From an uncultured Candidatus Saccharibacteria bacterium (GTDB taxonomy: Bacteria > Patescibacteriota > Doudnabacteria > UBA920): a stretch of 54,006 nt of DNA. The stretch spans positions 3,263-57,268 of the forward strand of contig CAZGEB010000003.1 in the NCBI GenBank assembly GCA_964524915.1, written 5' to 3'. Positions 2,985 through 53,526 of the stretch are shown here, one piece after another. Below the pieces are notes generated by a model. It saw only the letters and a list, made by a program, of their open reading frames with translations. It ran no database searches and had not been told where the DNA came from. The position numbers and the translations under genes were made by a program. The stretch's first letter is position 1, and every line of letters starts with the position of its first letter.

Positions 2985-5018
2985 ATGGAAAGAATCAAGC
3001 GGCATTTGTTTTGGGTACTCCCATCTCTAATTTTTCTGACAGCCCTAGCCTTTAGAACCTACAAACTTTTTATACTCCCAGCCGGACTTTTTCCCGATGA
3101 AGCAGCTAACGGACTGGACATTAATTTAATGGAGCAAGGCCATCTTCAGCCATTTTACGAAAGAGGTAATGGCAGAGAAGCCTTGTTTTTTTATATGCTT
3201 TGGGGTAGTGTAAAAATTTTTGGCAGAAGTCCTTTTGCCCATCATTTAGTCTCAGCCCTGGTTGGCACCCTGGCTGTAGCGGCTTGCTATTTTGTAACCA
3301 AAGAAATATTCAGACTCAAGGCTCACTCCTCACGTCTCACGGCTTATCTGGCCGCCTTCCTCATGGCCGTCTCTTCCTGGCACGTAGTTTTATCCCGCAC
3401 AGCCTTTAGGGCCAATTTAATTCCACTTTTGTCAGCCCTCACTCTGTGGGCGATGTTGAAAATAGTAACAAGAGACAAGCAAAAAGTAACAAGTAAACAG
3501 AATCCCGCTGCAAAATCGCTATTCGCTATTCGCTATTCGCTATTCCCCATCCTTTTCGGCATTTTCTTCGCCCTTGGATTTTATACCTACATAGCTTTTC
3601 GCATCATGATTCCGCTTGTGGGTATTTTGATTCTCTGGCCAACCGCGGCCTTTCTTCTGTCATCCCGTGCTACGACACGGGATCTTTACTTAATTTCTAA
3701 TAGCGAACAAAAAAGTGAAGCCGCCGAACTCCATACGGACAATAAAACAAAAAACGATTTCGGATCAAAACTCAAAATATTATTTCAAAATTTTTGGAAA
3801 CCTTTTTTGATTGCCGCAGTCAGTTTTGTAATAGTCATCTCCCCACTAGCTCATTATTTCTATACTCACCCAGGCAGCTTTGTTGGCCGAAGCGGACAAG
3901 TAAGTGTGTTTAATGTGGAATTAAATCATGGAGATCTAATCGGCACTATTTGGCAAGTAAGCAAGGACTCCATACTCGCCTACTTTACCCACGGAGATGT
4001 AAATTGGCGACACAATATTTCAGGCTTTCCTTTTCTTTCTCCTTTCATCTCGCCTTTTTTCGCCATTGGCTTAATTCTGTGTCTCTTGTTCGCTATTCGC
4101 TACACGCTAAGGCCTATACGCTATCGCCAGAACTACCCTGAATTTCTCCTTACTGGATGGTTTTTTGCCATGCTCTTGCCGGTGATCATGACGGCCGAAG
4201 GCATCCCTCACGGACTAAGAAGTATCGGCACTATTCCAGTAGTATTTATTATCACAGCTTATGGAATGTGTAAGGTTTATAATTGTCTCATGTTGTATGT
4301 CATCCCGGACAAGGCCGAGGCTTTGAGAGGCCGTGATCCGGGATCTTTATTAGAAAGCAAGGATACGGATGCTGAAAAAATATTGCAAGTAAGCAAAGAT
4401 CCCGGACATTTTCCCAAAGCGGAAAATTCCGGGATGACAGAAAAGATTGTCCGCGGGCTATCTTTTCTATATATTGCGTTTCTCCTCATCGCCTTACCCG
4501 TTCAAACTTATCAACTCTATTTTGTTACGGCTGCCAATTCTTCTGAAAACTACGAAGCTTTTCGTGGCGATCTGACAGTTGTCAGCGAATATTTAAAACA
4601 GTATGGACACAGAGAAACCACTTATTTAATTCTAGATAAATTTTCTGTGCAAACCACGGACTACCTCACTACCAAAGTCGGCAAGACTTCTTGCGACAGA
4701 GACTCCGCCTATCGCCCAAATAACTGTATAGATGATGCAAGTAACAAACCTTATACTCAAGTAGACCCAGAGGATTCTTGGCTAGGAGGTATGGCCCCCT
4801 CTCCTTCTGAGGAGAGGGCTGGGAAGAGGTTGGCTTCCGATAATACCAAACCTTCCCCTTACACTTATGGACTTAAAAGCGGAGACGAAATCGTTTTTAC
4901 CATGAGTTCACTTTTCGACATTAAAAAATTCAAACAGTACCACCCGAATGTAAAACTAAAACTTTTTGAAAAAAACACTGCGGGAAAATACATTATGGCA
5001 GTATATGTGGTTCAGTAA
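2985..5018 (+). CDS. GT-C fold glycosyltransferase, ArnT/PMT-like (GT39/GT83 type)
   Basis: N-terminal LFPDEAANGLD loop motif, many TM helices and a soluble C-terminal domain. The gene is interrupted by several repeat-derived peptide segments. Confidence 0.75.
   Translation: MERIKRHLFWVLPSLIFLTALAFRTYKLFILPAGLFPDEAANGLDINLMEQGHLQPFYERGNGREALFFYMLWGSVKIFGRSPFAHHLVSALVGTLAVAACYFVTKEIFRLKAHSSRLTAYLAAFLMAVSSWHVVLSRTAFRANLIPLLSALTLWAMLKIVTRDKQKVTSKQNPAAKSLFAIRYSLFPILFGIFFALGFYTYIAFRIMIPLVGILILWPTAAFLLSSRATTRDLYLISNSEQKSEAAELHTDNKTKNDFGSKLKILFQNFWKPFLIAAVSFVIVISPLAHYFYTHPGSFVGRSGQVSVFNVELNHGDLIGTIWQVSKDSILAYFTHGDVNWRHNISGFPFLSPFISPFFAIGLILCLLFAIRYTLRPIRYRQNYPEFLLTGWFFAMLLPVIMTAEGIPHGLRSIGTIPVVFIITAYGMCKVYNCLMLYVIPDKAEALRGRDPGSLLESKDTDAEKILQVSKDPGHFPKAENSGMTEKIVRGLSFLYIAFLLIALPVQTYQLYFVTAANSSENYEAFRGDLTVVSEYLKQYGHRETTYLILDKFSVQTTDYLTTKVGKTSCDRDSAYRPNNCIDDASNKPYTQVDPEDSWLGGMAPSPSEERAGKRLASDNTKPSPYTYGLKSGDEIVFTMSSLFDIKKFKQYHPNVKLKLFEKNTAGKYIMAVYVVQ
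3516..3543 (+). repeat. Heptamer tandem array (TCGCTAT)x4, in frame in GT-C gene 1
   Basis: Four perfect copies, translated as SLFAIRYSLF. A degenerate second tract lies at about 4087-4130. Confidence 0.9.
3657..3686. mobile_element. Family-A hairpin element, single module, in frame in a GT-C gene
   Basis: CTGTCATCCCGTG-CTACGA-CACGGGATCTTTA. It is 31 of 32 nt identical to the intergenic copy at 21767-21798 and is translated as LSSRATTRDL. Confidence 0.8.
4298..4440. mobile_element. Family-A composite mini-element (two inverted hairpin modules plus spacer), in frame
   Basis: Left end TGTCATCCCGGACAAGG..TCCGGGATC (4298-4346), right end GATCCCGGACA..TTCCGGGATGACA (4397-4439). The outward termini are a perfect 12-bp inverted repeat TGTCATCCCGGA. 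Translated as VIPDKAEALRGRDPGS..KDPGHFPKAENSGMT. Confidence 0.8.
4795..4833 (+). repeat. Family-B element, in frame in GT-C gene 1
   Basis: CCCTCTCC-TTCTGA-GGAGAGGG-CTGGGAAGAGGTTGG, translated as PSPSEERAGKRL. Confidence 0.8.
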
Positions 5019-5021
5019 GTC

Positions 5022-5049
5022 AAGAATAGCGAATAAAGAATAAAGAATT
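5022..5049 (+). repeat. Heptamer array (AAGAATA-like)x4 abutting the ATG of ORF 5050
   Basis: AAGAATA GCGAATA AAGAATA AAGAATT, followed directly by ATG. Confidence 0.8.
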
Positions 5050-5469
5050 ATGAAAAAAGAAACCCCACGAGCAAGCCAAGTGGAAAAACTCAGACAAATC
5101 GCCAAAGAACTGGCATATCGGGCGATAGAAATTTCTAATAAATACTGCGACGCGGAACAAGGGATGGATGGTTGGAGCATGCATGATTTGGTTGGCTCTA
5201 TTGCCGGGGGTGCTGCCGCGGCAGCAGAAATAGATGTTTTAGAAGAGACCCCAGGAAAACACGACGAAGAAATATCAGAAAGAATGCGATTAATGAACTT
5301 GTATTTAGAACTATTAGAAAGAAATGCAGAAGCTCGCCAGCAAGAATTGCAATCTGAAAAACGCGGCAATGAGCAAGCTTGGCTGGCAGCCCTCAAAGCT
5401 AGAGAACAAGGACTTTCACATCACACAGAATATATAAAAGCTGTATTAAAACAATTTAACTATCTATAG
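5050..5469 (+). CDS. Hypothetical helical/coiled-coil protein
   Basis: 139-aa ORF with an ATG start and a charged helical composition, lying between the two GT-C genes. The antisense ORF 4956..5396 looks like a shadow. Confidence 0.5.
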   Translation: MKKETPRASQVEKLRQIAKELAYRAIEISNKYCDAEQGMDGWSMHDLVGSIAGGAAAAAEIDVLEETPGKHDEEISERMRLMNLYLELLERNAEARQQELQSEKRGNEQAWLAALKAREQGLSHHTEYIKAVLKQFNYL

Positions 5470-5492
5470 ACCATCTACATAAAAACAAAACC

Positions 5493-7334
5493 ATGACCAA
5501 ATATAAAAACTATTTATTGTTGGGTATTATAGTTACTGTGGGACTAGGGATGCGGATTTTTCACAATCTAGATATTTCCCTTTGGCATGATGAGGCTTTT
5601 TCAGCACTGCTCATAAAATATCCATGGGGAGAAATGATGCATAGAATTGGTCTAGACGTGCATCCACCTATGTACTATATAGCTTTAAGATTTTGGAGTT
5701 ATATTTTTGGCGACTCACTGGCCGCTCTCCGAGGGTTTTCTATTTTCTTTGGAACAGCAACGATCATAGCAGTGTATGAATTGGTGAAGGCGATTACGAG
5801 TGGCGAGTGGCGAGTGACTAGCACAAAACAAAACTTTTCTGTCATCCCGACCTCCTCTTCTGTCATCCCGGCGGAGGCCGGGATCCACACAAAGCTGGAA
5901 AAATCAAAAGCAATAGATGATAAAGAAAAATACATGGATCCCGGTCTTCCCGCGGTCGCCCAAAGCAGCTCCCTTGTAGAAACCGGGATGACAAGAAATC
6001 TAGTCACTCACAATACGATATACGCTCCACTCCTGGCAGCTCTTCTTGTGGCGATCAATCCTTTTCAAATTGGTTTTTCTCTAGAGGCCCGCATGTATAC
6101 TTTTGGCGCTTTTTTGGCTGTACTAGCTGCGTATTTTCTTGTCCGTGCATTAAAAGCTACAAGCTACAAGCTACAAGCTACAAGCTATTTTATGTTTGCG
6201 GTAGCTTCCGGACTAGCCATACTTACTCATTATTATCTGATCTTCACTATAGCAGCACTATGTTTGTATGGACTCTTCCAAACAGCTACAAGCTACAAGC
6301 TACAAGCTACAAGCTTAAAAGCACAAATAGCAAATTACAAATCTAAAACTTGGCAATTAATCTTTTCTTATATTATTATCGGAGGATCCTTCCTTCCCTG
6401 GCTAAAAATATTTTTCTTTCAGTTCAAACAAGTAGGAAACGGGTACTGGATCCCAAAAATGGACCTCTGGAGCATGCCATCCACTATTTACGAAATGCTA
6501 GTAGGCGCTGGGGTAGATGCCCACAAAACCAGCACACAAATAATTCTGATTCTGGTAACGGCTGCGATTGTTTATATTACGATTTCATTTTTACGCAAAT
6601 CAAATCTCGCTTACAAAGGCTTGATTATTTTTGCCTGGCTAGCTCCTTTTGTGGGCTCGCTACTTTTTGCAGCGCTTGCCAAACTAAAAGGCAGCGATTC
6701 CTCTGTGTACTTGATTCGCTATTTTGCTTTTTCAGCTCCCTTTTTTAGTATAATGCTCGCCACGTGGCTAGGAGAATTACGGGTTATACCTGCCCGCTCG
6801 GATGGTGATAGTTACGGGTTACGGGTTGCAAAACTCAGGATCTTTATTCTTTATTCTTTATTCTTTATTCTGCTAATAACCAATCTCTACACTTTTTCAC
6901 ACTACTGGAAAGAACTAAATGTAAAAGAAAAACCAGGCATGAAAGCCGCCGTGGAACTTTTAAAAAATAATACCAAGCAAGGTGATATTTTGATCGTGGG
7001 AAGCAGCTTTGAATTTTTTAATCTGAAGTATTACTTGAACCAGCTATCAGCTAACAGCTATCAGCTAACAGCTAAGTTGTACAGTGGTGGACAAACAACT
7101 ATAGACAACATGCCGCACTTTGCTGGCACGGCAATTCTAACTAACGAGGATTTGCTTCCAAATTTTGAAAGCATTGATTCTGGTAATACTGTATGGCTGC
7201 TTTGGACCAATGGTTTTGGTGGAAATAAACCAGAAGTACCAAGTAATTGGACGCAAGAAGAAGAACACGGCTTCGCAGAAGTCAGACCATATGTAGGCAC
7301 TTGGATTGTAGTGGATAAATATAAAATCAAATAA
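5493..7334 (+). CDS. GT-C fold glycosyltransferase, ArnT/PMT-like (second paralog)
   Basis: ISLWHDEAFSALL motif after TM1, multiple TM helices and a soluble C-terminal domain. It carries many repeat-derived insertions. Confidence 0.75.
   Translation: MTKYKNYLLLGIIVTVGLGMRIFHNLDISLWHDEAFSALLIKYPWGEMMHRIGLDVHPPMYYIALRFWSYIFGDSLAALRGFSIFFGTATIIAVYELVKAITSGEWRVTSTKQNFSVIPTSSSVIPAEAGIHTKLEKSKAIDDKEKYMDPGLPAVAQSSSLVETGMTRNLVTHNTIYAPLLAALLVAINPFQIGFSLEARMYTFGAFLAVLAAYFLVRALKATSYKLQATSYFMFAVASGLAILTHYYLIFTIAALCLYGLFQTATSYKLQATSLKAQIANYKSKTWQLIFSYIIIGGSFLPWLKIFFFQFKQVGNGYWIPKMDLWSMPSTIYEMLVGAGVDAHKTSTQIILILVTAAIVYITISFLRKSNLAYKGLIIFAWLAPFVGSLLFAALAKLKGSDSSVYLIRYFAFSAPFFSIMLATWLGELRVIPARSDGDSYGLRVAKLRIFILYSLFFILLITNLYTFSHYWKELNVKEKPGMKAAVELLKNNTKQGDILIVGSSFEFFNLKYYLNQLSANSYQLTAKLYSGGQTTIDNMPHFAGTAILTNEDLLPNFESIDSGNTVWLLWTNGFGGNKPEVPSNWTQEEEHGFAEVRPYVGTWIVVDKYKIK
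5797..5817 (+). repeat. Heptamer array (CGAGTGG)x3, in frame in GT-C gene 2
   Basis: CGAGTGG CGAGTGG CGAGTGA, translated as SGEWRVT. Confidence 0.8.
5839..5995. mobile_element. Family-A composite mini-element with an extra partial terminus, in frame
   Basis: Partial CTGTCATCCCGA (5839-5850), then the full module TGTCATCCCGGC-GGAG-GCCGGGATCC (5861-5886). An AT-rich spacer follows, then the inverted module GGATCCCGGTCTTCCCGCGG..GAAACCGGGATGACA (5936-5993). Confidence 0.8.
6155..6187 (+). repeat. Heptamer array (AGCTACA)x4+, in frame in GT-C gene 2
   Basis: Four perfect copies plus a partial copy, translated as KATSYKLQATSY. Confidence 0.9.
6284..6316 (+). repeat. Heptamer array (AGCTACA)x4+, second copy in GT-C gene 2
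   Basis: Four perfect copies plus a partial copy, translated as TATSYKLQATSLK. Confidence 0.9.
6777..6868 (+). repeat. Composite of TTACGGG heptamers, a GC-rich core and (TCTTTAT)x4, in frame in GT-C gene 2
   Basis: TTACGGG TTATACC TGCCCGCTCGGATGGTGATAG TTACGGG TTACGGG .. TCTTTAT x4 (6841-6868), translated as LRVIPARSDGDSYGLRVAKLRIFILYSLFFIL. Confidence 0.8.
7041..7075 (+). repeat. Heptamer array (CAGCTAW)x5, in frame in GT-C gene 2
   Basis: CAGCTAT CAGCTAA CAGCTAT CAGCTAA CAGCTAA, translated as QLSANSYQLTAK. Confidence 0.85.
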
Positions 7335-7351
7335 ACTATCAAAATAGCCAT

Positions 7352-7378
7352 ACAAAAAGAGTCCGCCAGCTGGCGGAC
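7352..7378 (-). terminator. Intrinsic terminator after ftsQ, between convergent genes
   Basis: Perfect 18-nt palindrome GTCCGCCAGCTGGCGGAC, followed on the minus strand by TCTTTTTGTAT. Confidence 0.65.
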
Positions 7379-7391
7379 CCATATCTTACGA

Positions 7392-8456
7392 CTATTCAGC
7401 TACCTTCCAAGGCAATTTTTCTGCACACGGCGTAGACTCTAAGCAGAGATACCCTCTTCCAGCATACCGCATATCCAAATAAACGATTTTTTGTAAACGG
7501 TCACGAGACTGTTTACTCAAAACCAAATCCAGCTGAGATTTTAAATCATCTGGATTTTGTTTTAATTGCAAAAGCAAATAAAAACTCCTCTCCGTACCAA
7601 GAACGGACTTGGCCTCCAAAACCAGCTCCCCAGACAATTCATCTTGCTGTTTGTAAATAATATCACGGGGCAAGCTATTAGTCTGGATCAAAGGATCACC
7701 TGTAGTGACATCGTCGCCAAAAATCTTTTCTAACGCTTTTTCTTGAGGCTTTTCTAAAAGCACCAAAGGTAAAACTTCAATTCCCAAAACATTAGATATC
7801 CCAGACTGCACTACAGCACGAGTCAATCCAGACATCTTTATAGCCAAGTCCTTGTTTAAATTTTCCCCGGATATAACTCCACTGAGGCCAGCATTCCATC
7901 GTAACTTAGGCACTCCAGAAGAGGCAGGATCATTTAGATCATTCTGAAAAAGATAAAGACCATCCTCACCAAAAATTTTATTTTTTCCATCCTGCTCTAC
8001 TTTAAAAGTAGGGGTGCGTGGTTGTAATTGTATCAAGACTTTGCTGGGCCAATCCTCCTTTACAGAGATAACCTCCAAAACATCTGATCTTTTTTCCAGC
8101 AAACGAGTCAGATCATCTGTATCGAAAAGTAAGAGGCTCTGTTCACGCATACCAAAAAAACGACTGTTGGATAAATACTCTTTCACTTGAGAGACGACAC
8201 TCTGATTATTTTCACCCAAACCATCAACTACAATTTCTTTGATTTGAAAATAAGAACCAAAAATTAAATAATAAAAAATCAACAAAGTAGGCACAAGACA
8301 CCCCAGTAAAATATTTCTGAGTAGCTCCTTCTTTCCCCACTTCTTTTTCACCATTGGCAAAGTTGGCCTAGCCGCTGCACCAAAATTAAAAAATCTAGAG
8401 AGGAAGGAAACTCGAACTTTTTTATGATTGTCTGTTTTTACTTCATGTAAACGCAT
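7392..8456 (-). CDS. ftsQ: Cell-division protein FtsQ-like (single TM plus POTRA-like domain)
   Basis: Basic N-terminus, one TM (LLGCLVPTLLIFYYLIF), then IKEIVVDGL as at the start of a POTRA domain. The gene lies directly downstream of murF. Confidence 0.5.
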   Translation of the reverse strand: MRLHEVKTDNHKKVRVSFLSRFFNFGAAARPTLPMVKKKWGKKELLRNILLGCLVPTLLIFYYLIFGSYFQIKEIVVDGLGENNQSVVSQVKEYLSNSRFFGMREQSLLLFDTDDLTRLLEKRSDVLEVISVKEDWPSKVLIQLQPRTPTFKVEQDGKNKIFGEDGLYLFQNDLNDPASSGVPKLRWNAGLSGVISGENLNKDLAIKMSGLTRAVVQSGISNVLGIEVLPLVLLEKPQEKALEKIFGDDVTTGDPLIQTNSLPRDIIYKQQDELSGELVLEAKSVLGTERSFYLLLQLKQNPDDLKSQLDLVLSKQSRDRLQKIVYLDMRYAGRGYLCLESTPCAEKLPWKVAE

Positions 8457-10367: not shown

Positions 10368-11744
10368 TTATTTACCCTTAATTACTTCACTTCCAACATA
10401 CTTTTGCAAAATCTCAGGCACTTTCACAGATCCATCTGCTTGCTGATAGTTTTCCAAAATGGCGATCAAAATACGTGGAGATGCCACTGCGGTATTATTG
10501 AGAGTAAAAGCATATTTCACCTCACCTTTACTGTCGCGATAACGAATATTAAGCCTGCGAGCTTGCCAGTCAGTTAGATTTGAGTCTGAATGAGTTTCCC
10601 CGTAATTTTTTCTAGCTGGCATCCAAGTCTCTATGTCGTACATTTTATATTTACCCATACCCATATCGCCAGTACATACATGAATCACGCGGTATGGTAG
10701 CTTCAAATCTTGCAGCATTTCTTCGGCGATTTCTCTGAGTGCCTCATGGAGACGTTCACTTTCCTCCACCTCCGCTTTACACACAACCACCTGCTCCACC
10801 TTCATAAACTCATGAACACGATACAAACCCTTAGTGTCCTTACCGTAACTGCCAATCTCACTTCTATAGCAAGGGGAAACGCCACACACTTGAATTGGTA
10901 AATCTTTTTCTTCTAATATCTTATCTGCATAATAAGCAATCAAAGAAGGTTCAGATGTTCCCGCCAAAAACATCGGCTCCCTCCCCTTCTGAGGGGAGGG
11001 TTGGGGAGAGGTTGTATCATCATTAACCAAATCATGTTCTTCTGCCACTTGATAAATTTCTTCTCTACCCTGAGGCAACATACCAGCTCCCTGCAATGCA
11101 AATTCCCGAACAATCGTTGGAGTCGCCATCAAAGTAAAACCTTTGGCACGAAGTTTTTCTAGGGCATGCATCATGAGACCATAATGCATAAGCACTAATT
11201 CATTTTTCAAATAATACCCACGAAAACCCGCGGTCTTTACTCCAGCTTCCAAATCCATCAAATTTAAATTCACACCAATCTCTGCATGATCCTTAACTTC
11301 AAAATCAAATTTAGTTGGCACCTCGCTGACTTTGGGATCATCCGCAGACATAGCGCCAGTAGCCACACTCCAGTAACGCCAAGGAATATTTCCACTATCG
11401 TCTTTACCCACCGGCACTTCTGGTGCGGGAATATTTGGAATTTGCAACATCAGAGCATCAAACTGCTTTTGCACTTCGCGAAGTTTGGCTTCCATTTCTG
11501 TTTGCCTGGAATCCACTTCTTTCATCTCGAGCAGCTTTGACGCCTTCTCATCAGCAGACATTTTTGCAATATCCAAAGACACTGCGTTTTTGGCGGCCCG
11601 GAGAGCATCTACCCCCGCCACCAATTCACGTCTTTGCAAATCCCAATCCAAAAGTTGGTCTATCACATTTGCATCAATGCCTTTTTTGCTGCAAGCATCT
11701 TTGACCTTGTCCGCATTTTCTCTAATAAATTTGATATCGAGCAT
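10368..11744 (-). CDS. serS: Seryl-tRNA synthetase
   Basis: MLDIKFIRENADKV N-terminus, a coiled-coil arm, and class II motifs GLYRVHEFMKVEQ and TLNNTAVASPRILIAILENYQ. It contains an in-frame family-B element (TTSPQPSPQKGREP). Confidence 0.95.
   Translation of the reverse strand: MLDIKFIRENADKVKDACSKKGIDANVIDQLLDWDLQRRELVAGVDALRAAKNAVSLDIAKMSADEKASKLLEMKEVDSRQTEMEAKLREVQKQFDALMLQIPNIPAPEVPVGKDDSGNIPWRYWSVATGAMSADDPKVSEVPTKFDFEVKDHAEIGVNLNLMDLEAGVKTAGFRGYYLKNELVLMHYGLMMHALEKLRAKGFTLMATPTIVREFALQGAGMLPQGREEIYQVAEEHDLVNDDTTSPQPSPQKGREPMFLAGTSEPSLIAYYADKILEEKDLPIQVCGVSPCYRSEIGSYGKDTKGLYRVHEFMKVEQVVVCKAEVEESERLHEALREIAEEMLQDLKLPYRVIHVCTGDMGMGKYKMYDIETWMPARKNYGETHSDSNLTDWQARRLNIRYRDSKGEVKYAFTLNNTAVASPRILIAILENYQQADGSVKVPEILQKYVGSEVIKGK
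10977..11014 (+). repeat. Family-B element, in frame (antisense orientation) in serS
   Basis: CCCTCCCC-TTCTGA-GGGGAGGG-TTGGGGAGAGGTTG. It is read on the minus strand as TTSPQPSPQKGREP. Confidence 0.8.
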
Positions 11745-13603: not shown

Positions 13604-13613
13604 GATTTAATAT

Positions 13614-13655
13614 AGTGAATAGTGAATAGTGAATAGTGAATAGTGAATAGTGAAT
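13614..13655 (+). repeat. Heptamer array (AGTGAAT)x6, 10 nt upstream of the lysS start codon
   Basis: Six perfect copies, followed by the GC-rich segment CTGCCCGCC..GGCAGGCGGG and a further TGAATAGTGA. Confidence 0.9.
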
Positions 13656-13734
13656 AGACTGCCCGCCAGTGAAAGGCTCAGGCAGGCGGGTGAATAGTGA
13701 CGAACCTTGTCCACCACTCACTTCTTATAGCACA

Positions 13735-13760
13735 CCCGCCATAGCATTAGCGGCGACGGG
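13735..13760 (+). repeat. GC-rich CCGCC hairpin (family D) abutting a heptamer array
   Basis: CCCGCCATAGCATTAGCGGCGACGGG. 22 of 26 nt are identical to the reverse complement of 52401-52428. Confidence 0.7.
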
Positions 13761-13765
13761 CTTCT

Positions 13766-13814
13766 CTTACTTCTTACTTCTTACTTCTTACTTCTTACTT
13801 CTTACTTCTTACTT
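13766..13814 (+). repeat. Heptamer array (CTTACTT)x7
   Basis: Seven perfect copies directly after the family-D hairpin. Confidence 0.9.
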
Positions 13815-13820
13815 CAAACA

Positions 13821-21754: not shown

Positions 21755-21766
21755 AAAGATAGGCTT

Positions 21767-21798
21767 CTGTCATCCCGTGCCACGACACGGGATCTTTA
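21767..21798. mobile_element. Family-A hairpin element, intergenic (proS start / GIY-YIG stop)
   Basis: CTGTCATCCCGTG-CCACGA-CACGGGATCTTTA. Confidence 0.8.
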
Positions 21799-21804
21799 AT
21801 TTAT

Positions 21805-22101
21805 TTACTGAATTATTTCACTATATAAATCTTTCCATTGAGAGTTAGACTTGTTAATCAGTTCCAATTTCCATTGCCTTTTCCACTCCTTGACTTGCTT
21901 TTCTTTTTTAATAGCTGTTTCTATTGAGTTTGTGGACTCAAACCAAACTAACAGGTGAACAAAATATTTTTCTGTAAATCCTTTTATCAGATTATGCTTA
22001 TGTTCATAAACCCTTCTGATCAGATCATTAGTCACGCCGACATGCAGAACTCCATAGGGTTTACTTGCCATGATATAGACATAATAGACATTGCTCTGCA
22101 T
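21805..22101 (-). CDS. Stand-alone GIY-YIG nuclease-domain protein (COG2827/YhbQ-like)
   Basis: YYVYIMASKPYGVLHVGVTNDLIRRVYEHK..FTEKY..LVWFE..AIKKEKQVKEWKRQWK. It is flanked on both sides by family-A hairpins. Confidence 0.85.
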   Translation of the reverse strand: MQSNVYYVYIMASKPYGVLHVGVTNDLIRRVYEHKHNLIKGFTEKYFVHLLVWFESTNSIETAIKKEKQVKEWKRQWKLELINKSNSQWKDLYSEIIQ

Positions 22102-22110
22102 TTGAGTAAA

Positions 22111-22173
22111 GATTCCGGCTCTGTCCCACTACGCTAAAGCTTCGCGGGATCTACGAGAGGCCGGAATGACAGA
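22111..22173. mobile_element. Family-A hairpin module in inverted orientation, just upstream of the GIY-YIG start
   Basis: GATTCCGGCTCTGTCCCACTACGCTAAAGCTTCGCGGGATCTACGAGAGGCCGGAATGACAGA. Stem ATTCCGGC(C)TCT / AGAGGCCGGAAT. Confidence 0.75.
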
Positions 22174-26631: not shown

Positions 26632-27795
26632 ATGCAAACTCCTCCCCCCAATTTAATAGTCATTGCCGGCCCCACATCCAGCGGAAAATCTGAGCTAGCG
26701 GTCAAAATCGCAAAAAAAATTGGCGGGGAAATCATTTCCGCAGATTCCCGCCAAGTTTACCGCGGTTTAAATATTGGAACAGGCAAAGTTGAGGGAGAAT
26801 GGCAGAAAGTATCCTTAATCCGTAATCCTTTATCCTTAACAAACACAAAACAGCAAACAGGAAAAGATAAAAATGTAATTTCAAATTCAAACCCCCCGCT
26901 CTTAGTCAAGGATCAAAGATTAAAGATTAAGGATAGCAATGTTTTTGTTTACAAAAAAGTATTACACCACTGTATAGACTTTGTAAACCCCAAAAAACAA
27001 TACACTGTCAATGATTTTAAAAAAGATGGACAAAAAGCCATTGAGGATATTTATTCTCGCGGAAAAATCCCGATCATCTGTGGCGGCACAGGCCACTATA
27101 TAGATGCACTGATTTTTGATCAAAATATTCCAGAAGTTCCACCAGATGAAAAATTTAGAAAAAAAATGGAAAAAAAATCCGCAGAAAATCTTTTCTTGCT
27201 ATTGAGCAAAAAAGATCCAGCCCGCGCGAGTAATATAGATAGAAATAATAAACGTCGCCTCATCCGCGCCCTAGAAATCATCCACCATACCAAAAAACCC
27301 GTCCCCTATTTTTCCCCCTCCCCTAGTGAGGGGAGGGCTGGGGAGAGGTTGCACCACGACCGCATAGACCTGCCCACTCCTGCTGACCGGGAATCCATAT
27401 TATCAAATCCTGGATCCTGGATCGCAGTCGCAGAGCCTCCTTTGTCCGGGACGACAAGATTAGAAATAATACTTTTGACTCCACCCCGCCAAGAACTTTA
27501 CCAAAAAATCGAAAAGCGCCTCATTCAAAGAGTGAAGATGGGCATGGTTGAAGAAGTGCTAAAGTTACACCAAAACGGCCTATCCTGGAAACGCATGGAG
27601 TCCCTCGGTCTAGAGTACCGTCACATTGCAAGATTTTTACAAGAAAATAAAAATGTATTCCTAAAAACTAAAAACTCGCAACTAAAAACTCAATTTCTAT
27701 CTTCCTCTCACTTTCAAACTCTCCTTCAAGAAAGCAAAAATTATAGTAAACGCCAAGAAACTTGGTTTAGAAAATATAAAACAGCCGCAAACTAA
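26632..27795 (+). CDS. miaA: tRNA dimethylallyltransferase
   Basis: IAGPTSSGKSELAV P-loop, ISADSRQVYRGLNIGTGK and GGTGHYIDALIF. At 387 aa it is enlarged by several repeat-derived insertions. Confidence 0.9.
   Translation: MQTPPPNLIVIAGPTSSGKSELAVKIAKKIGGEIISADSRQVYRGLNIGTGKVEGEWQKVSLIRNPLSLTNTKQQTGKDKNVISNSNPPLLVKDQRLKIKDSNVFVYKKVLHHCIDFVNPKKQYTVNDFKKDGQKAIEDIYSRGKIPIICGGTGHYIDALIFDQNIPEVPPDEKFRKKMEKKSAENLFLLLSKKDPARASNIDRNNKRRLIRALEIIHHTKKPVPYFSPSPSEGRAGERLHHDRIDLPTPADRESILSNPGSWIAVAEPPLSGTTRLEIILLTPPRQELYQKIEKRLIQRVKMGMVEEVLKLHQNGLSWKRMESLGLEYRHIARFLQENKNVFLKTKNSQLKTQFLSSSHFQTLLQESKNYSKRQETWFRKYKTAAN
26811..26934. repeat. Insertion in miaA bounded by inverted heptamer arrays
   Basis: ATCCTTA ATCCGTA ATCCTTT ATCCTTA (26811-26838) .. 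CAAGGAT CAAAGAT TAAAGAT TAAGGAT (26907-26934), translated as VSLIRNPLSLTN..KDQRLKIKDS. Confidence 0.8.
27314..27351 (+). repeat. Family-B element, in frame in miaA
   Basis: CCCTCCCC-TAGTGA-GGGGAGGG-CTGGGGAGAGGTTG, translated as PSPSEGRAGERL. Confidence 0.8.
27386..27458. mobile_element. Degenerate family-A-like module fused to heptamers, in frame in miaA
   Basis: ACCGGGAATCC..ATCCTGGATCCTGGATCGCAGTCGCAG..GTCCGGGACGACAAG, translated as DRESILSNPGSWIAVAEPPLSGTT. Confidence 0.45.
27661..27695 (+). repeat. Degenerate heptamer array (CTAAAAA-like)x5, in frame in miaA
   Basis: CTAAAAA CTAAAAA CTCGCAA CTAAAAA CTCAATT, translated as LKTKNSQLKTQF. Confidence 0.7.
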
Positions 27796-34469: not shown

Positions 34470-36086
34470 TTACTGTAATTTTTTACGCAAGACTTCATTT
34501 ACTAGACTGGGATTGCCCTGGCCTTTCAATTCTTTCATACACTGCCCCACCAAAAAACCAAAAGATTTTTCTTGTCCAGCTTTAAAGTCCTGCACAGCCT
34601 TTTCATTTTCCGATAAAACTTTGTCTATAGCGGCTTCAATTACAGTAGCATCACTCACCTGAGACAGCCCAAGATCTTTGACTATTTCACTTGGATCGCC
34701 ACCCTTTTCAAACATCACTTTGAAAATTTGCTTTGCGGCCGCAGAAGACACTTCTCCCCGGCTTATCATCAAAATCAATTCCGCTAAATTTTCTGGCGTT
34801 ACAAAAGTTTCATCTGGATTTTTTCCTGCAATTTTCAATGCTGCAGAAAAATCCTGCAAACACCAGTTGGCGGCAAGTTTGATCAGCTTGACCAGATTTG
34901 AATCAATGCTGGATTCCGGTCTTCCCGCGCTCGAGGACTCGCTTGTGGAAACCGGAATGACGGGAGAGGGTGACAGATCAGACAGCCATGCGACTATTTC
35001 ACTCACAACATTTTCAAAATAAAAAGTTAATTCTTTCCAATTCAAAAGATTTTCAATGTCTGCAGCGGGAAGTGCGTATTCACCAGCAAACCTCAGTCTT
35101 TTTGCAGACGGCAATTCAGGCAATTCTGCACGCAATTTTTCTAAATACTCTTTGGTAAAATGCAGTGGTGGTAAATCTGGATCTGGTAAATATCTATAGT
35201 CATTTGCTTCTTCTTTGCTTCTCTGCTCTACAGTTTTATTTAGCTTCTCGTTCCACCCCATGGTAACTTGCTTAGGGGTCACGCCCTGAAGTCGCAATTC
35301 ACTTTGCCTTACTATTTCGTAATTAATCGCTTGCTCTACAAATTTAAAAGAATTAATATTTTTCACTTCCACTTTATAAGGCGGCAAACCCTCTTCACCA
35401 GGAAGCCTCACAGAAATACTTGGCTCGCACCTCATACTCCCCTTTTCCATATCTGCATCGCTGGCCCCCACATAGCGAGCAATGCGCTGTAATTCTTCCA
35501 AATATTTTCTAGCTTCTTCAGCTGACTCTATAACTGGATGAGTAACTATTTCCAAAAGTGGTGTACCGGCACGATTATAATCAACCAAAGAATAAGGCAA
35601 GCCATCTGGGTGCATATTTTTGCCCGCATCCTCTTCTAAATGCGCGCGTTGAATCAGCACCCGCTTTGCATGTACATTTTTCCTCTCTCCTTGTGAGGAG
35701 AGAGCGCCGCCGCCTTGGGCGGGAGAGAGGTTGTCTGAAACTTGTATTTCTATCCACCCCTCTTGGGCGATCGGCTGATCCAACTGAGAAATCTGATAAC
35801 CTTTTGGTAAATCAGGATAAAAATAATGCTTACGATCAAATTTACTCCACTCGTCTATTCTGCAATTCAAAGCCAAACCCATCATAGCAGCCAACCTCAC
35901 GGCTTCTTCATTAATCACAGGCAACGTCCCTGGATGCGCCAAAACCACTTCATCAATATTGGTATTTGGATCTTTTACGCTTTGATCATTTGGGGCAGAA
36001 GAGAACATCTTCGACTTGGTACGAAGTTGAATATGCACCTCAAGCCCAATCACTGGTTTTAATAATTGTATATTATTGTCTATCAT
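34470..36086 (-). CDS. gatB: Asp/Glu-tRNA amidotransferase subunit B
   Basis: IGLEVHIQL, RAHLEEDAGK, VEVKNINSF, EANDYRYLPDPDLPP and a C-terminal YqeY-like domain. It carries two in-frame repeat elements. Confidence 0.95.
   Translation of the reverse strand: MIDNNIQLLKPVIGLEVHIQLRTKSKMFSSAPNDQSVKDPNTNIDEVVLAHPGTLPVINEEAVRLAAMMGLALNCRIDEWSKFDRKHYFYPDLPKGYQISQLDQPIAQEGWIEIQVSDNLSPAQGGGALSSQGERKNVHAKRVLIQRAHLEEDAGKNMHPDGLPYSLVDYNRAGTPLLEIVTHPVIESAEEARKYLEELQRIARYVGASDADMEKGSMRCEPSISVRLPGEEGLPPYKVEVKNINSFKFVEQAINYEIVRQSELRLQGVTPKQVTMGWNEKLNKTVEQRSKEEANDYRYLPDPDLPPLHFTKEYLEKLRAELPELPSAKRLRFAGEYALPAADIENLLNWKELTFYFENVVSEIVAWLSDLSPSPVIPVSTSESSSAGRPESSIDSNLVKLIKLAANWCLQDFSAALKIAGKNPDETFVTPENLAELILMISRGEVSSAAAKQIFKVMFEKGGDPSEIVKDLGLSQVSDATVIEAAIDKVLSENEKAVQDFKAGQEKSFGFLVGQCMKELKGQGNPSLVNEVLRKKLQ
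34911..34962. mobile_element. Family-A hairpin module, in frame in gatB
   Basis: GGATTCCGGTCTTCCCGCGCTCGAGGACTCGCTTGTGGAAACCGGAATGACGG. It has the same architecture as 5936-5993 and is translated on the minus strand as PVIPVSTSESSSAGRPESS. Confidence 0.8.
35682..35733 (+). repeat. Family-B element variant with an extra CCGCC hairpin, in frame (antisense) in gatB
   Basis: CTCTCTCC-TTGTGA-GGAGAGAG-CGCCGCCGCCTTGGGCGGGAGAGAGGTTG. It is read on the minus strand as NLSPAQGGGALSSQGER. Confidence 0.7.
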
Positions 36087-36268: not shown

Positions 36269-37744
36269 TCAACTTAACTTTGGAAAATTCTTATGCCAAT
36301 CTGTTGCTTCTTGGAAGGCCATGCCTACATCAAACAAAACTTGCTCGCCCCACTGCGGACCAATCAATTGCAATCCTACTGGTAGATCCACGTCTCCACC
36401 ATCCACAGGCCTACCAAAACCGCAAGGCAAAGACAAAGCAGGGAGCCCCGCCAAAGAAGATGGGATATTGAGCTGATCTGCAATATAACCAAAAAGAGGA
36501 TCATCAGCTGCACCTTCTATTTTCACCGCCACATTTGGACTACTTGGAGCTGCCAAAACATCTACTTTTTTAAATACTTCTGCAAATTCATCTATAATGA
36601 GTCGCCGCACTTTCTGCGCCCGTTTGTAATAAGCATCGTAATAACCAGAAGACAATACATAAGTACCAGTCAAAATTCTTCTCTTTGCCTCATCGCCAAA
36701 ACCCTCGTCGCGAGTTTTTTCGTACACATCCAAAAGACTATTCGCCTCACTAGACACATGACCATAACGAATACCATCAAAGCGAGACAAATTTGAAGCT
36801 ATCTCAGCCGGGGCTACAATAGCATAAACCAAAGATCCGTATTTTGTATTTGGTAAATCCACCTCCACAAGCTCGGCCCCCAATTTTTCTAATTCTCTGA
36901 TACCATCCATAACCCTTTCTCTTACATCCCCCTCCATACCATCTACAAAGTACTGTTTGGGAACCCCAACCTTAAGCCCCTGCAAGCTTGTAGCTTGTAG
37001 CTTGTAGCTTGTAGCCTTATCTCCAGTCGTGGAGTCTTTCGGGTCTCTTCCAGACATAACATTTGCCAAAACTATCAAGTCTTTTACAGAGTAAGCATGA
37101 GCTCCAGGACTATCCAAAGAAGATCCCATAGCAATCACTCCATATCTAGAAACTCTTCCATAGGTAGGCTTCCAACCACTTACTCCGCAAAGCGAAGAAG
37201 GCTGACGAATACTTCCGCCAGTTTCCGTACCCAAAGTCCAAGGAGCCAAGCCCGCCGCCAAAGAAGCCGCGCTTCCACCACTAGATCCACCAGGAATTCG
37301 AGATTTATCCCATGGATTTTTACTGGGACCAAAAGCAGAAGTAGCAGTAGAAGATCCGTGAGCAAACTGGTCCAAATTAGTTTTACCCAAAAGTACACCT
37401 TTTTGTTCTTTGATTTTTGCAATCACAGTAGCATCAAAAGGCGGTGTATAATTTTCCAAAATTTTGGAGGCGGCTGTGGTTTTCACTCCACGAGTGACAA
37501 ATAAATCCTTTGCTGCATACGGAATTCCACAAAGCAGTGGATTTTCTCCAGACAATTTCATAAACTCATCTGCTTGTCTTGCCTCTTCTAGAGCTTCATT
37601 TTCACAAACTGTAATAAAAGAATTTAATTCCCCATCGAGCTTTTGAATACGCGCCAAAAAATACTTCGTCATTTCCACTGACGAAATTTCTTTATCGTCC
37701 AACAACTTTCTTAATTCAGAAATTCCTAAATACTCTAATTGCAT
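36269..37744 (-). CDS. gatA: Asp/Glu-tRNA amidotransferase subunit A
   Basis: Amidase signature GGSSGGSAASLAAG and GTETGGSIRQPSSLCGV. It carries an in-frame heptamer array (KATSYKLQATS). Confidence 0.95.
   Translation of the reverse strand: MQLEYLGISELRKLLDDKEISSVEMTKYFLARIQKLDGELNSFITVCENEALEEARQADEFMKLSGENPLLCGIPYAAKDLFVTRGVKTTAASKILENYTPPFDATVIAKIKEQKGVLLGKTNLDQFAHGSSTATSAFGPSKNPWDKSRIPGGSSGGSAASLAAGLAPWTLGTETGGSIRQPSSLCGVSGWKPTYGRVSRYGVIAMGSSLDSPGAHAYSVKDLIVLANVMSGRDPKDSTTGDKATSYKLQATSLQGLKVGVPKQYFVDGMEGDVRERVMDGIRELEKLGAELVEVDLPNTKYGSLVYAIVAPAEIASNLSRFDGIRYGHVSSEANSLLDVYEKTRDEGFGDEAKRRILTGTYVLSSGYYDAYYKRAQKVRRLIIDEFAEVFKKVDVLAAPSSPNVAVKIEGAADDPLFGYIADQLNIPSSLAGLPALSLPCGFGRPVDGGDVDLPVGLQLIGPQWGEQVLFDVGMAFQEATDWHKNFPKLS
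36985..37012 (-). repeat. Heptamer array (AGCTTGT)x4, the reverse complement of the AGCTACA arrays, in frame in gatA
   Basis: Four perfect copies, read on the minus strand as KATSYKLQATS. This is the same peptide as in GT-C gene 2. Confidence 0.9.
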
Positions 37745-52374: not shown

Positions 52375-52401
52375 AGCAGTAAGTAGTAAGTAGTAAGTAG
52401 T
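52375..52401 (+). repeat. Heptamer array (AGTAGTA-like)x4, 17 nt upstream of the dedA start, fused to a family-D hairpin
   Basis: AGCAGTA AGTAGTA AGTAGTA AGTAGT, then CCGCCGCCGCTAAAGCTATGGCGG. Confidence 0.85.
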
Positions 52402-52428
52402 CCGCCGCCGCTAAAGCTATGGCGGATG
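52401..52428 (-). repeat. GC-rich CCGCC hairpin (family D) abutting a heptamer array
   Basis: TCCGCCGCCGCTAAAGCTATGGCGGATG, whose reverse complement is CATCCGCCATAGCTTTAGCGGCGGCGGA. Confidence 0.7.
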
Positions 52429-52451
52429 CACCATAAGCAGTAGGCAAAAAG

Positions 52452-52794: not shown

Positions 52795-52846
52795 CCTGTC
52801 ATCCCGAATCCCGCCGACGGCGGGACGAACGCGATCCGGAATCCAG
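52795..52846. mobile_element. Family-A hairpin element, intergenic (atl / HAD)
   Basis: CCTGTCATCCCGAATCCCGCCGACGGCGGGACGAACGCGATCCGGAATCCAG, with inner hairpin TCCCGCC-GAC-GGCGGGA. Confidence 0.75.
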
Positions 52847-52883
52847 TTTTTAAAAATTAATATTATTAATACGAAAATTCTTT

Positions 52884-53489
52884 ATGATAAAAGCAATAAC
52901 ATTTGACTTAGACGGTGTTTATTTTATAAATGGTAAATCAAATTTCATCAAAACTCTAGGGGAAATGGGAGTTGATGAAGCGGAGGCCAAAAGAGTATTC
53001 CTCTCAAGCCCTGAAATGAATTTTCAGTACAAAACAGGAAAAATGACAGATGAACAATTTTGGTCTTGGGCTTTAGCAGAATGGAAACTAGACATAACCG
53101 TAGAAGAAATTATCAATTTACTAATAAAAGGCTATGAAGTAGATGATAATGTTGTTAATGTAGTTAAAAAAGCAAGGGCTAACGGTTATAAAACACTTAT
53201 TTGCACAAATAATTTTCCCGCTCGCATAAATGGACTGCAAAAAAGGTTTGGGTTTTTAGATAACTTTGATGTAACTGTAATTTCAAGTGAAGTGGGCGCA
53301 ATTAAACCCCAAAAAGAATTATTTGAAGCGCTAATAAACCAATCTGGAGTAAAACCTTCTGAAATATTTTACGCTGATGATTATGACGAAGCAATAGAAA
53401 CCGCGAAAAATCTTAACATTGAGACATTGCATTACACTGACTTTCCAAGTTTTTTAGATAAATTAAAAGAATTAGGTGTAAATCTATAA
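52884..53489 (+). CDS. HAD-superfamily hydrolase
   Basis: Motif I ITFDLDGV, motif II LICTNN, motif IV FYADDYDEA. Confidence 0.8.
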   Translation: MIKAITFDLDGVYFINGKSNFIKTLGEMGVDEAEAKRVFLSSPEMNFQYKTGKMTDEQFWSWALAEWKLDITVEEIINLLIKGYEVDDNVVNVVKKARANGYKTLICTNNFPARINGLQKRFGFLDNFDVTVISSEVGAIKPQKELFEALINQSGVKPSEIFYADDYDEAIETAKNLNIETLHYTDFPSFLDKLKELGVNL

Positions 53490-53497
53490 CGTAACTG

Positions 53498-53526
53498 GAT
53501 CCCGTGTCGCGGCACGGGATGACAGA
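53498..53526. mobile_element. Family-A hairpin element, inverted orientation, intergenic
   Basis: GGATCCCGTGTCGCGGCACGGGATGACAG, the reverse complement of CTGTCATCCCGTGCCGCGACACGGGATCC. Confidence 0.8.

Follow-up and report, generated by a model that had tools for sequence, protein, structure and literature searches.

How two genes can take up repeat after repeat and still remain open is the question raised by a 54,006-nt stretch of contig CAZGEB010000003.1, analysed here as a whole and referred to as the window (GC 41.6%, coding ~92%), whose lineage is Candidatus Doudnabacteria (Patescibacteria, also known as the candidate phyla radiation, CPR). Two neighbouring genes in it, gene 1 and gene 2, encode predicted membrane glycosyltransferases of the GT-C type, and an earlier note on this DNA had described them as hot spots carrying at least a dozen in-frame repeat insertions. 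Our analysis makes it likely that dispersed repeats landed in permissive regions of these genes, are translated, and are kept in frame by purifying selection. Thirteen repeat-derived segments explain the excess length of the two genes over their homologues, which amounts to 120 aa in gene 1 and 90 aa in gene 2, and about one-fifth (~20%) of the two genes is repeat-derived. The coordinates of these segments and of related features are collected in Table 1.

Each GT-C gene was aligned with ~120 homologues. According to these alignments, the excess in gene 1 resides at aa 165-177 together with the adjoining TCGCTAT array, and at aa 227-260, ~440-481 and 605-625; that in gene 2 is found at aa ~103-170, in 10 extra residues where the second AGCTACA array lies, and in the 6777-6871 region. 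Most of the dozen tracts listed in the earlier note are indeed insertions or replacements relative to the homologues, and their coordinates, as checked with Tandem Repeats Finder (TRF) and a repeat finder, are correct or off by a few nt. The CTCAAGGCTCACTCCTCAC tract, which had been placed at ~3304-3323, lies ~10 nt away at 3314-3333, and has a second copy (2864-2883) against 0.01 matches expected by chance. One listed tract is native: the degenerate TCGCTAY heptamers at 4087-4130 were considered as a repeat insertion on the + strand and rejected, since they encode the native motif LFAIRYTLRPIRY, in which A(I/V)RY..P.K is kept in the same columns in all aligned homologues.

Table 1 Repeat-derived segments and associated genes in the window (aa, residues of the encoded protein; TM, transmembrane; SRM, hairpin family described in the text)
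Feature	Position	Strand	Evidence and remarks
Gene 1: GT-C glycosyltransferase, 677 aa (homologues ~555 aa)	2985-5018	+	open reading frame (ORF), Pfam PMT_2, AlphaFold, Foldseek
20-nt dispersed repeat ACTCAAGGCTCAnTCCTCAC, variable loop aa 111-117	3314-3333	+	reverse-complement copy 2864-2883; loop length varies among homologues
Degenerate AGTAACA array, aa 161-171	3464-3496	+	TRF; belongs to 13-aa-plus insertion (aa 165-177)
TCGCTAT x4.3, read as SLFAIRYSLF, start of TM helix	3516-3545	+	predicted helix H174-199
NTS/SRM hairpin (3658-3687) and tail, 34-aa insertion, aa 227-260	3657-3764	+	matches published SRM pattern
SRM composite, aa ~439-486: forward and inverted hairpins around a 52-nt spacer	4298-4442	+	not in homologues; pLDDT 45-56
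Family-B element (CCCTCTCC/GGAGAGGG hairpin and G-rich tail) and tail, C-terminal soluble domain, aa 605-625	4797-4859	+	not in homologues; pLDDT 44-57
Gene 2: GT-C glycosyltransferase, 613 aa (homologues ~525 aa)	5493-7334	+	ORF, Pfam PMT_2, AlphaFold, Foldseek
CGAGTGG x3 (x2.9), aa 102-109, beginning of large disordered insert	5797-5817	+	TRF, alignment
SRM composite, aa 116-169: duplicated left end 5839-5859, hairpin 5862-5884, 51-nt spacer, inverted hairpin 5938-5992	5839-5997	+	
AAGCTAC x4.9 (KATSYKLQATSY), loop and helix start	6154-6187	+	equal-length AAGGTAT array instead in strain L001
AGCTACA x4.6, 10-aa insertion, short inter-helix loop	6284-6316	+	TRF, alignment, model
GTTACGG array broken by 28-nt insertion (6786-6813)	6777-6830	+	28 nt missing in strain L001
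TCTTTAT x4.4, read as IFILYSLFFI, within TM helix	6841-6871	+	predicted helix H441-475
CAGCTAW x5, substitutes longer native loop	7041-7075	+	loop 63 nt longer in strain L001 and other homologues
Family B in SerRS (gene on - strand), clean 10-aa insertion	10979-11015	+	only sizeable gap relative to 71%-identical SerRS of sister lineage L218
ssnA homologue, GIY-YIG, 98 aa (21805-22101), with SRM hairpins on either side (21768-21797 and 22112-22170)	21768-22170	-	Pfam GIY-YIG as sole domain
Inverted heptamer-array element (~125 nt) in MiaA	26808-26937	+	further family B at 27316-27352
SRM-type hairpin in GatB, read as VIPVSTSESSSAGRPE	34913-34961	-	repeat finder, frame analysis
(ACAAGCT)n block in GatA, peptide ATSYKLQATS as in gene 2	36985-37015	-	block comparison

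The insertions are reproducible. The two closest sister lineages, with the same gene order and GC content (L217 and L218; gene 1 identity 52-55%), have none of these elements inside their two GT-C genes. Over 3089-7419, a separate ENA assembly (L002) aligns at 99.75% identity and has zero gaps, and a Logan contig of a ~90% identical strain from a different sample (L001) has matching insertions. The possibility of assembly artefacts, raised in the earlier note, is thereby dismissed, because both of these independent assemblies carry the insertions.

As the earlier note had envisaged, the insertions could be mapped onto loops and transmembrane (TM) helices, and they fall mostly into loops of low confidence in the AlphaFold models. 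In gene 1 a predicted local distance difference test score (pLDDT) below 50 is found at aa 235-242, 449-479 and 612-619, all within SRM or family-B insertions, and outside them at aa 406-411; in gene 2 such values are restricted to aa 106-170, within the SRM insertion. The 34-aa insertion of gene 1 (pLDDT 48-64) is missing from all homologues. The two T-rich arrays, encoding SLFAIRYSLF and IFILYSLFFI, behave differently from the other arrays, which form loops or helix ends, in that they correspond to segments of TM helices both in the alignments and in the predictions.

Both ORFs stay open across all of the repeats, as had been claimed, and the assignment of their products to the GT-C glycosyltransferases is borne out by Pfam PMT_2 and by Foldseek matches to ArnT, AglB, STT3 and Pmt4. 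The PMT_2 score of gene 2 is 33.9 bits, above the cutoff of 26.1, and that of gene 1 is 24 bits, slightly under the cutoff because the insertions split the domain. Homologues of the two genes match PF13231 or PF02366, and their relatives in Candidatus Doudnabacteria/Patescibacteria bear the annotation family-39 glycosyltransferase. The predicted template-modelling score (pTM) of the AlphaFold models is 0.81 for gene 1, with Foldseek matches to AglB, STT3 and ArnT, and 0.85 for gene 2, with matches to ArnT, STT3 and Pmt4; the best structural matches overall are ArnT 5f15, AglB 5gmy/3waj, STT3 and Pmt4 at a probability of 1.00, and ALG9 is also matched. For both proteins the models thus predict a GT-C fold that crosses the membrane several times and has a soluble domain at the C terminus, and an acidic D-E motif in the first extracytoplasmic loop (D38-E39 in gene 1, D33-E34 in gene 2) is invariant in both alignments. 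When the window is compared with strain L001, synonymous divergence (dS) is 0.37 and nonsynonymous divergence (dN) 0.040 over the native parts of gene 2, giving a dN/dS of 0.107; for the 3' end of gene 1, dN/dS is 0.145. These ratios, together with the predicted folds, indicate that both genes are functional and not pseudogenes, gene 2 being under purifying selection.

Evidence that the segments are read as protein comes from the way stops are avoided. For each SRM composite, only one of the three frames on its strand is open, and this is the frame used (VIP..., in gene 1 VIPDKAEAL...); the SRM copy in GatB is read in the same frame. Each of the six perfect intragenic arrays is oriented with no stop among its seven cyclic triplets, and five of them would have a stop on the opposite strand. 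All four intragenic arrays with a stop triplet in their unit are imperfect and substituted exactly at the would-be in-frame stop, in contrast to the five of five arrays with stop-free units that are perfect (p = 0.008). Thus a perfect AGTAACA array at 3464-3496 would give an in-frame TAA, and the actual array is substituted there, and the A-to-T variant in the CAGCTAW array abolishes an in-frame TAA. All 12 segments are stop-free in the host frame, with a joint chance of ~3e-5. Furthermore, the 28-nt insertion at 6786-6813 is offset by the neighbouring array, which is one unit (7 nt) shorter in the window than in L001, so that the net difference between the two is 21 nt. This insert shows no significant folding and has no second copy in the window, with only a loosely similar hairpin at 13659-13690. 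A comparison of copy numbers between strains, proposed in the earlier note, gives no array difference between the window and L002 and a single, compensated unit difference from L001, and hence no sign of phase-variable copy-number polymorphism in these pairs.

The earlier note had left the choice between strong selection on insertion length and phase and removal at the RNA or protein level. The stop avoidance and the compensated indels favour the former; the in-frame state is therefore attributed to selection on the translated sequence. In the alternative, the segments would be excised from mRNA, in an intron-like manner or by RNase processing, or from protein, in an intein-like manner, which we regard as hardly credible. 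The strong hairpins of the SRM composites (z-scores of -7.4 and -4.0) could be read in its favour, as could the intervening sequences in rRNA genes for which CPR bacteria are known. However, Rfam searches gave no match at gathering score and two chance-level matches at E <= 1, with no intron or ribozyme family even at that threshold, and the segments, at 7-50 aa, are too small for inteins and have neither intein motifs nor splicing-junction residues. Removal would not keep 12-13 segments stop-free, place substitutions at would-be stops or call for compensation of frameshifts, and two of the arrays align with and substitute TM helix residues of homologues. Cutting at the hairpins would moreover destroy the mRNA, because to our knowledge no ligation system exists for mRNA cut in this way.

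The hairpins termed family A in the earlier note are real elements; their identity as NTS/SRM, and the presence of an ssnA gene in the same window, had been missed. Each consists of a 5' tag (C)TGTCAT, a stem-loop and a 3' tag ATC, and occurs singly or as inverted pairs around a 51-52-nt spacer. Judged by sequence, family A is the published NTS/SRM (dRS3-type) hairpin, the target of SsnA. The hairpin was named NTS/SRM by Chenal et al. (Nat Commun 2025; PMC11893778) and contains the Neisseria dRS3 repeat; SsnA (GIY-YIG, cd10448, ~94 aa) is a site-specific nuclease for single-stranded DNA (ssDNA) that cuts beside NTS/SRM, and an IS-like NTS-ssnA-NTS layout and its likeness to REP/RAYT were already noted there (PMC11893778). 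The published degenerate SRM search sequence, HGTCWYN(0-2)YYVSBRHN(0-5)WNVSBRGN(0-2)RNCYNB, has three exact matches in the window (3658-3687, 21768-21797 and 53495-53524) against 0.13 expected. Copies with a CCCGG stem, at 4299, 4399, 5862, 5938, 22112 and 34913, fail this strict pattern; they have the GTCAT tag, stem and ATC tag, and one of them flanks ssnA itself. On these sequence features the CCCGG-stem copies, which include those of the composites and of GatB, are filed as SRM-like relatives, not as strict members of the pattern.

The gene at 21805-22101 encodes an SsnA homologue that is likely, as predicted from its sequence, to be the cognate nuclease of family A. It is 50% identical (E = 4e-25) to the NTS-flanked homologue of N. 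gonorrhoeae, and the 3658-3687 hairpin of gene 1 is 93% identical to the hairpin at 21764-21806 beside it. NCBIfam, PHROGs and PDB sequence searches with this GIY-YIG protein were uninformative. More than 4600 GIY-YIG homologues at 60-70% identity were found in Omnitrophota, Betaproteobacteria, Dehalococcoidia, Dadabacteria and others, and hairpins adjoin the ssnA homologues in all ten further loci inspected, including those of cultured Planktothrix, Neisseria gonorrhoeae and Sinorhizobium meliloti; most have hairpins 5' and 3', and in L214/L215 (Dadabacteria) the pair is downstream only. The association of GIY-YIG genes with such hairpins is already known, and the window is in agreement with it (PMC11893778).

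Some ssnA homologues are found in unusual surroundings. In a Dadabacteria genome (L214/L215) the ssnA homologue (1201-1491) is placed inside a type I CRISPR-Cas operon, with cas7 and cas5 as its neighbours, and in an Omnitrophota locus (L204, 444-734) it is directly upstream of a large serine recombinase. In L210/L211, the ssnA homologue (1501-1794) has on both sides tandem arrays whose ~24-nt unit terminates in GGCGGGAATGAC, one half of an SRM hairpin, which shows that SRM halves are able to form tandem arrays themselves. In the window, SRM hairpins at 52797-52850 and 53495-53524 form an inverted pair that encloses a HAD-type hydrolase gene (52884-53489); this bracket (52797-53524) corresponds to the 'NTS-gene-NTS' layout known from Neisseria.

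The two composites fold strongly (gene 1, -34.9 kcal/mol, z = -7.4; gene 2, z = -4.0). The composite of gene 2 (pLDDT 35-44) occurs in no homologue except that of strain L001, with which it is identical at 159 of 159 nt, compared with 90.3% for native gene 2 DNA (p = 3.6e-7), and the identity runs ~20 nt past both ends. Metagenomes were scanned with a query covering three-quarters of the composite from its left end (an estimated ~0.2 matches expected by chance), and the pattern was found in at least 120 contigs with GC ranging from 0.31 to 0.71 and unrelated flanks; among the matches listed, 102 of 120 loci also have the terminal CCGGRATGAC, which is absent from the query pattern. The composite is therefore regarded as a discrete cross-phylum element. 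An exact 32-nt piece of the gene 2 composite spacer had zero matches in JGI metagenomes, and a comparison of the composite spacers with the ssnA gene gave no clear similarity, leaving unproven the idea that the composites are deletion derivatives of an ssnA cassette.

A second hairpin family, family B, consists of CCCTCYCC-loop-GGRGAGGG followed by YTGGGRAGAGGTT. Its three copies in the window are all intragenic, in gene 1 (element proper at 4797-4833), SerRS and MiaA. Related elements occur in high-GC soil metagenome contigs, and no assignment of family B to a named family could be made. The gene 1 orthologue of a 46%-identical Doudnabacteria genome (L007, ~7650-7720) has a family-B-like CCCTCTCCGTCTGGGAGAGGGCAGGGTGAGGG in almost the same loop as the window, in both cases a few codons past a PEDSW motif, and this coincidence suggests either recurrent insertion at one loop or an old insert.

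The third kind of repeat, the heptanucleotide array, dominates the tandem repeats of the window: perfect arrays of at least three copies number ten at period 7 and one at all other periods from 4 to 12 together. Such arrays are ~20-fold denser in the window than in 80 other Doudnabacteria loci, and the heptamer blocks were restricted to the same lineage among 221 loci searched. The arrays are scattered over the whole window, are built from many different units, often form inverted pairs (2860-2959; 26808-26937) and may contain a small hairpin or insert (13659-13690; the 28 nt at 6786-6813). Between the window and L001 the unit of orthologous arrays differs and the length does not. The counterpart in L001 of the TCTTTAT array at 6841-6871 is TCGCTAT x5.4, built from the unit that also forms the array of gene 1 at 3516-3545. 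At three sites in two genes an (AGCTACA)4.4 block agrees in length, in phase and in the frame in which it is read, GatA (36985-37015) holding the block of gene 2 (6284-6316) in matching frame. En-bloc copying of a ~33-nt unit accounts for this more readily than independent slippage does. Heptameric repeats are over-represented in bacteria, and polymerase slippage has been offered as the cause (PMC4692102).

Two intergenic regions contain further arrays. The divergent promoter region between a GT2 gene and gene 1 (2860-2959) has an inverted pair of heptamer-like tracts of the GTGAGGA- and CTCACTC-type, one arm of which is a source-like copy of the 3314-3333 tract of gene 1. Near a LysRS-like gene, 13612-13815 comprises ATAGTGA x6.6, split by the 32-nt hairpin at 13659-13690, a 46-nt repeat with an inverted copy at 52396-52441, and TCTTACT x7.3. 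The last array has a syntenic TTCTTAC x4.3 of the same unit in sister lineage L218 (17598-17627), and may be old or functional.

The claim that the two GT-C genes are a hot spot is statistically real. Of 18 intragenic repeat segments, 13 reside in these genes, whose share of the coding DNA is 7.8% (p = 2e-11), and the density is 3.35/kb in the GT-C genes, 0.11/kb in other coding sequence and 3.24/kb in intergenic DNA. The phenomenon is not, however, special to them, as SerRS, MiaA, GatA and GatB contain the same repeat families. MiaA (tRNA isopentenyltransferase, 26632-27795) is ~80 aa over its usual length, has further short arrays, and its Pfam match is split in two. Tolerance accounts for part of the concentration, the GT-C enzymes being loop-rich membrane proteins of middling conservation, and the clustering of Neisseria NTS beside membrane-protein genes (PMC11893778) is a possible parallel.

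These data are brought together in a mechanism in which three small kinds of repeat, NTS/SRM hairpins, family-B hairpins with a G-rich tail and heptanucleotide arrays, would have multiplied in this lineage, their copies inserting into or replacing permissive parts of the two GT-C genes and of several housekeeping genes. The segments would be transcribed and translated, mostly into disordered loops, with two T-rich arrays supplying hydrophobic TM helix residues, and purifying selection would have removed alleles that were out of frame or contained stops, while point mutations repaired stops and nearby indels compensated frameshifts. The SRM hairpins may have spread by ssDNA-based movement or by recombination involving SsnA, and the heptamers by polymerase slippage and en-bloc copying; the extra residues would be functionally neutral, a point that, like both routes, we infer only. 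Several observations weigh against this account. A passively decaying insert would not stay 100% identical at a synonymous divergence of 0.37, and the identity of the gene 2 composite across strains suggests recent exchange or co-conversion, or a constraint at the DNA level. Tolerance cannot be the whole cause of the concentration, because the density in the GT-C genes equals that of intergenic DNA and faster-evolving neighbours are clean, the FtsQ-like gene, for instance, being 27% identical to that of L218 and carrying zero segments. Finally, no mobility event is directly seen, and translation of the segments is deduced from sequence.

Some of these observations are shared by the view that the repeats are useful in genes of surface glycosylation, diversifying them either by exchange of loop cassettes through SRM, SsnA and transformation or as contingency switches. 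The 30-fold enrichment unexplained by evolutionary rate, a composite that is identical in 10%-diverged strains and whose identity reaches ~20 nt beyond its ends as in a short recombination or co-conversion tract, and orthologous arrays that change unit and keep length all argue for such adaptive diversification, as do the Neisseria NTS clusters near membrane-protein genes and the effect of SsnA on transformation (PMC11893778). The large insert of gene 2 follows TM3 and is probably on the outer face, the membrane sidedness of the inserts being assigned solely by helix counting. Yet the window and L002, at 99.75% identity, do not differ in array copy number; with 3-5 units the arrays are short, and a gene has several of them, which sets them apart from known phase-variation switches; the elements also occur in the cytoplasmic SerRS, MiaA, GatA and GatB, for which a surface role is irrelevant; and the comparison rests on two strains. 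We consider an adaptive role rather unlikely on this evidence. An origin in situ, by local slippage expansions and ordinary variable loops without insertion of dispersed elements, appears very unlikely. Several arrays do lie in loops whose length varies among homologues, the bacterial over-representation of heptamers may reflect polymerase slippage (PMC4692102), and the tract at 4087-4130 proved native, but near-identical copies of families A and B exist at other places in the window and across phyla, the (AGCTACA)4.4 block is repeated at its three sites in equal length and frame, units of the TCGCTAT, TATAAGG and TCTTTAT type reappear at unrelated sites, and the sister lineages are without the arrays. 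Insertion of dispersed repeats followed by purifying selection on the translated product is thus retained as the preferred explanation.

A more far-reaching form of exchange may be sketched, in which SRM pairs, SsnA and DNA uptake together would bring about a homing-like exchange of in-frame modules as cassettes into outward-facing loops of glycosylation enzymes, the ~33-nt heptamer blocks being mobile as well. This is speculative and, in our estimation, improbable; if true, the composite conserved in 10%-diverged strains would be its footprint, and ~33-nt heptamer blocks such as that encoding ATSYKLQATS would be the smallest known in-frame mobile units.

Two further ORFs of the window deserve mention. 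The GT-C genes had been described as adjacent; they are neighbours, but a 139-aa ORF at 5050-5469 intervenes. It is missing in the sister lineages L217 and L218, where both GT-C genes abut, is preceded by AAGAATA-type heptamers, and is only 50% identical between the window and L001, compared with 89% for gene 2. Searches of this ORF gave no Pfam or NCBIfam match and no informative PHROGs or PDB sequence match; the sole PHROG match obtained with it and the GIY-YIG protein is at chance level (E 0.009) and to a family of unknown function. The 139-aa ORF looks like a fast-evolving, lineage-specific insert. On the - strand, a 1496-aa ORF (41904-46394) with 9-nt GGTGGAGG-type repeats and internal 277-nt duplications (45019-45295 and 45508-45784) is probably a repetitive surface protein.

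With respect to its significance, the window is an extreme natural case of coding sequence colonised by small repeats, which make up about 20% of two membrane-enzyme genes under selection and portions of four essential enzymes, in a CPR genome that is tiny and dense with genes. It offers a sequence-level view of selection on inserts, in the form of stop-avoiding mutations, orientation bias and compensated frameshifts, and provides natural substrates for studies of SsnA specificity and of the origin of 7-nt periodicity. For annotation it serves as a warning that such inserts can be the reason for a weak Pfam score or for a CPR protein of excessive length.

The components described here belong to known kinds, namely NTS/SRM-SsnA, heptameric repeats and in-frame inserts of the type of the Rickettsia palindromic element (RPE), and no new mechanism is called for; the novelty lies in the setting and the degree, the SRM copies of this CPR genome being mostly intragenic and apparently translated, and its heptamer arrays building parts of predicted TM helices. 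The likeness to NTS/SRM-SsnA resides in the oriented hairpin with (C)GTCAT and ATC tags, in the ~95-aa single-domain GIY-YIG gene with hairpins on both sides, and in the many clustered copies. The window differs in that six of ~10 copies are intragenic and in frame, compared with only 2% of NTS inside genes in N. meningitidis (PMC11893778); furthermore, the host is a CPR bacterium, the role of the nuclease is predicted from sequence, and most copies have a CCCGG stem with a loop shorter or longer than the published pattern allows. The Ssn/SRM system is thereby extended to Patescibacteria and to an intragenic, presumably translated, setting.

The same hairpin-spacer-hairpin architecture is encountered in other repeat systems. 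The Neisseria NIME are said to be 50-150-bp units flanked by dRS3 inverted repeats, as described by Parkhill et al. in 2000, and they and the Rhizobium RIME share with the window composites the arrangement of inverted hairpin, ~51-nt spacer and inverted hairpin, which is also found around ssnA in N. gonorrhoeae and S. meliloti. NIME form intergenic arrays, however, whereas the composites are single units within coding sequence, where they are predicted to be translated. The REP/BIME and REPIN repeats with their RAYT enzymes (IS200/IS605-like) resemble the present system in their dispersed hairpins, inverted doublets and single-copy, hairpin-flanked nuclease or transposase gene, but the enzyme is HUH-Y1 and not GIY-YIG, and REPs are extragenic almost by definition (PMC3116915).

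The heptamer arrays resemble the heptanucleotide repeats of Xanthomonas and Nostoc (PMC4692102), the cyanobacterial STRR and the small dispersed repeats of Nostoc in their preference for period 7, many units, inverted pairs, small hairpins within arrays, and variation of length and unit between close relatives. The reported repeats are mostly intergenic, whereas the window has six perfect arrays in ORFs, two arrays encoding parts of predicted TM helices, and a CPR host. The small dispersed repeats of Nostoc were reportedly the subject of work by Elhai et al. in 2008. The parallel with RPE drawn in the earlier note is apt: these palindromic elements of ~100-150 nt, reportedly described by Ogata et al. 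in 2000, are said to be kept in frame in functional protein genes, where they add surface loops. The likeness is one of a palindromic element in frame within functional ORFs, that is, of the way of working and not of sequence membership, and the window differs from RPE in phylum and in that heptamer arrays and a second family of hairpins occur alongside its hairpin elements. Since Rickettsia is among the SRM-rich genera (PMC11893778), a link between SRM and RPE is possible, and the window provides a conceptual bridge between the Ssn/SRM system and the Rickettsia palindromic elements.

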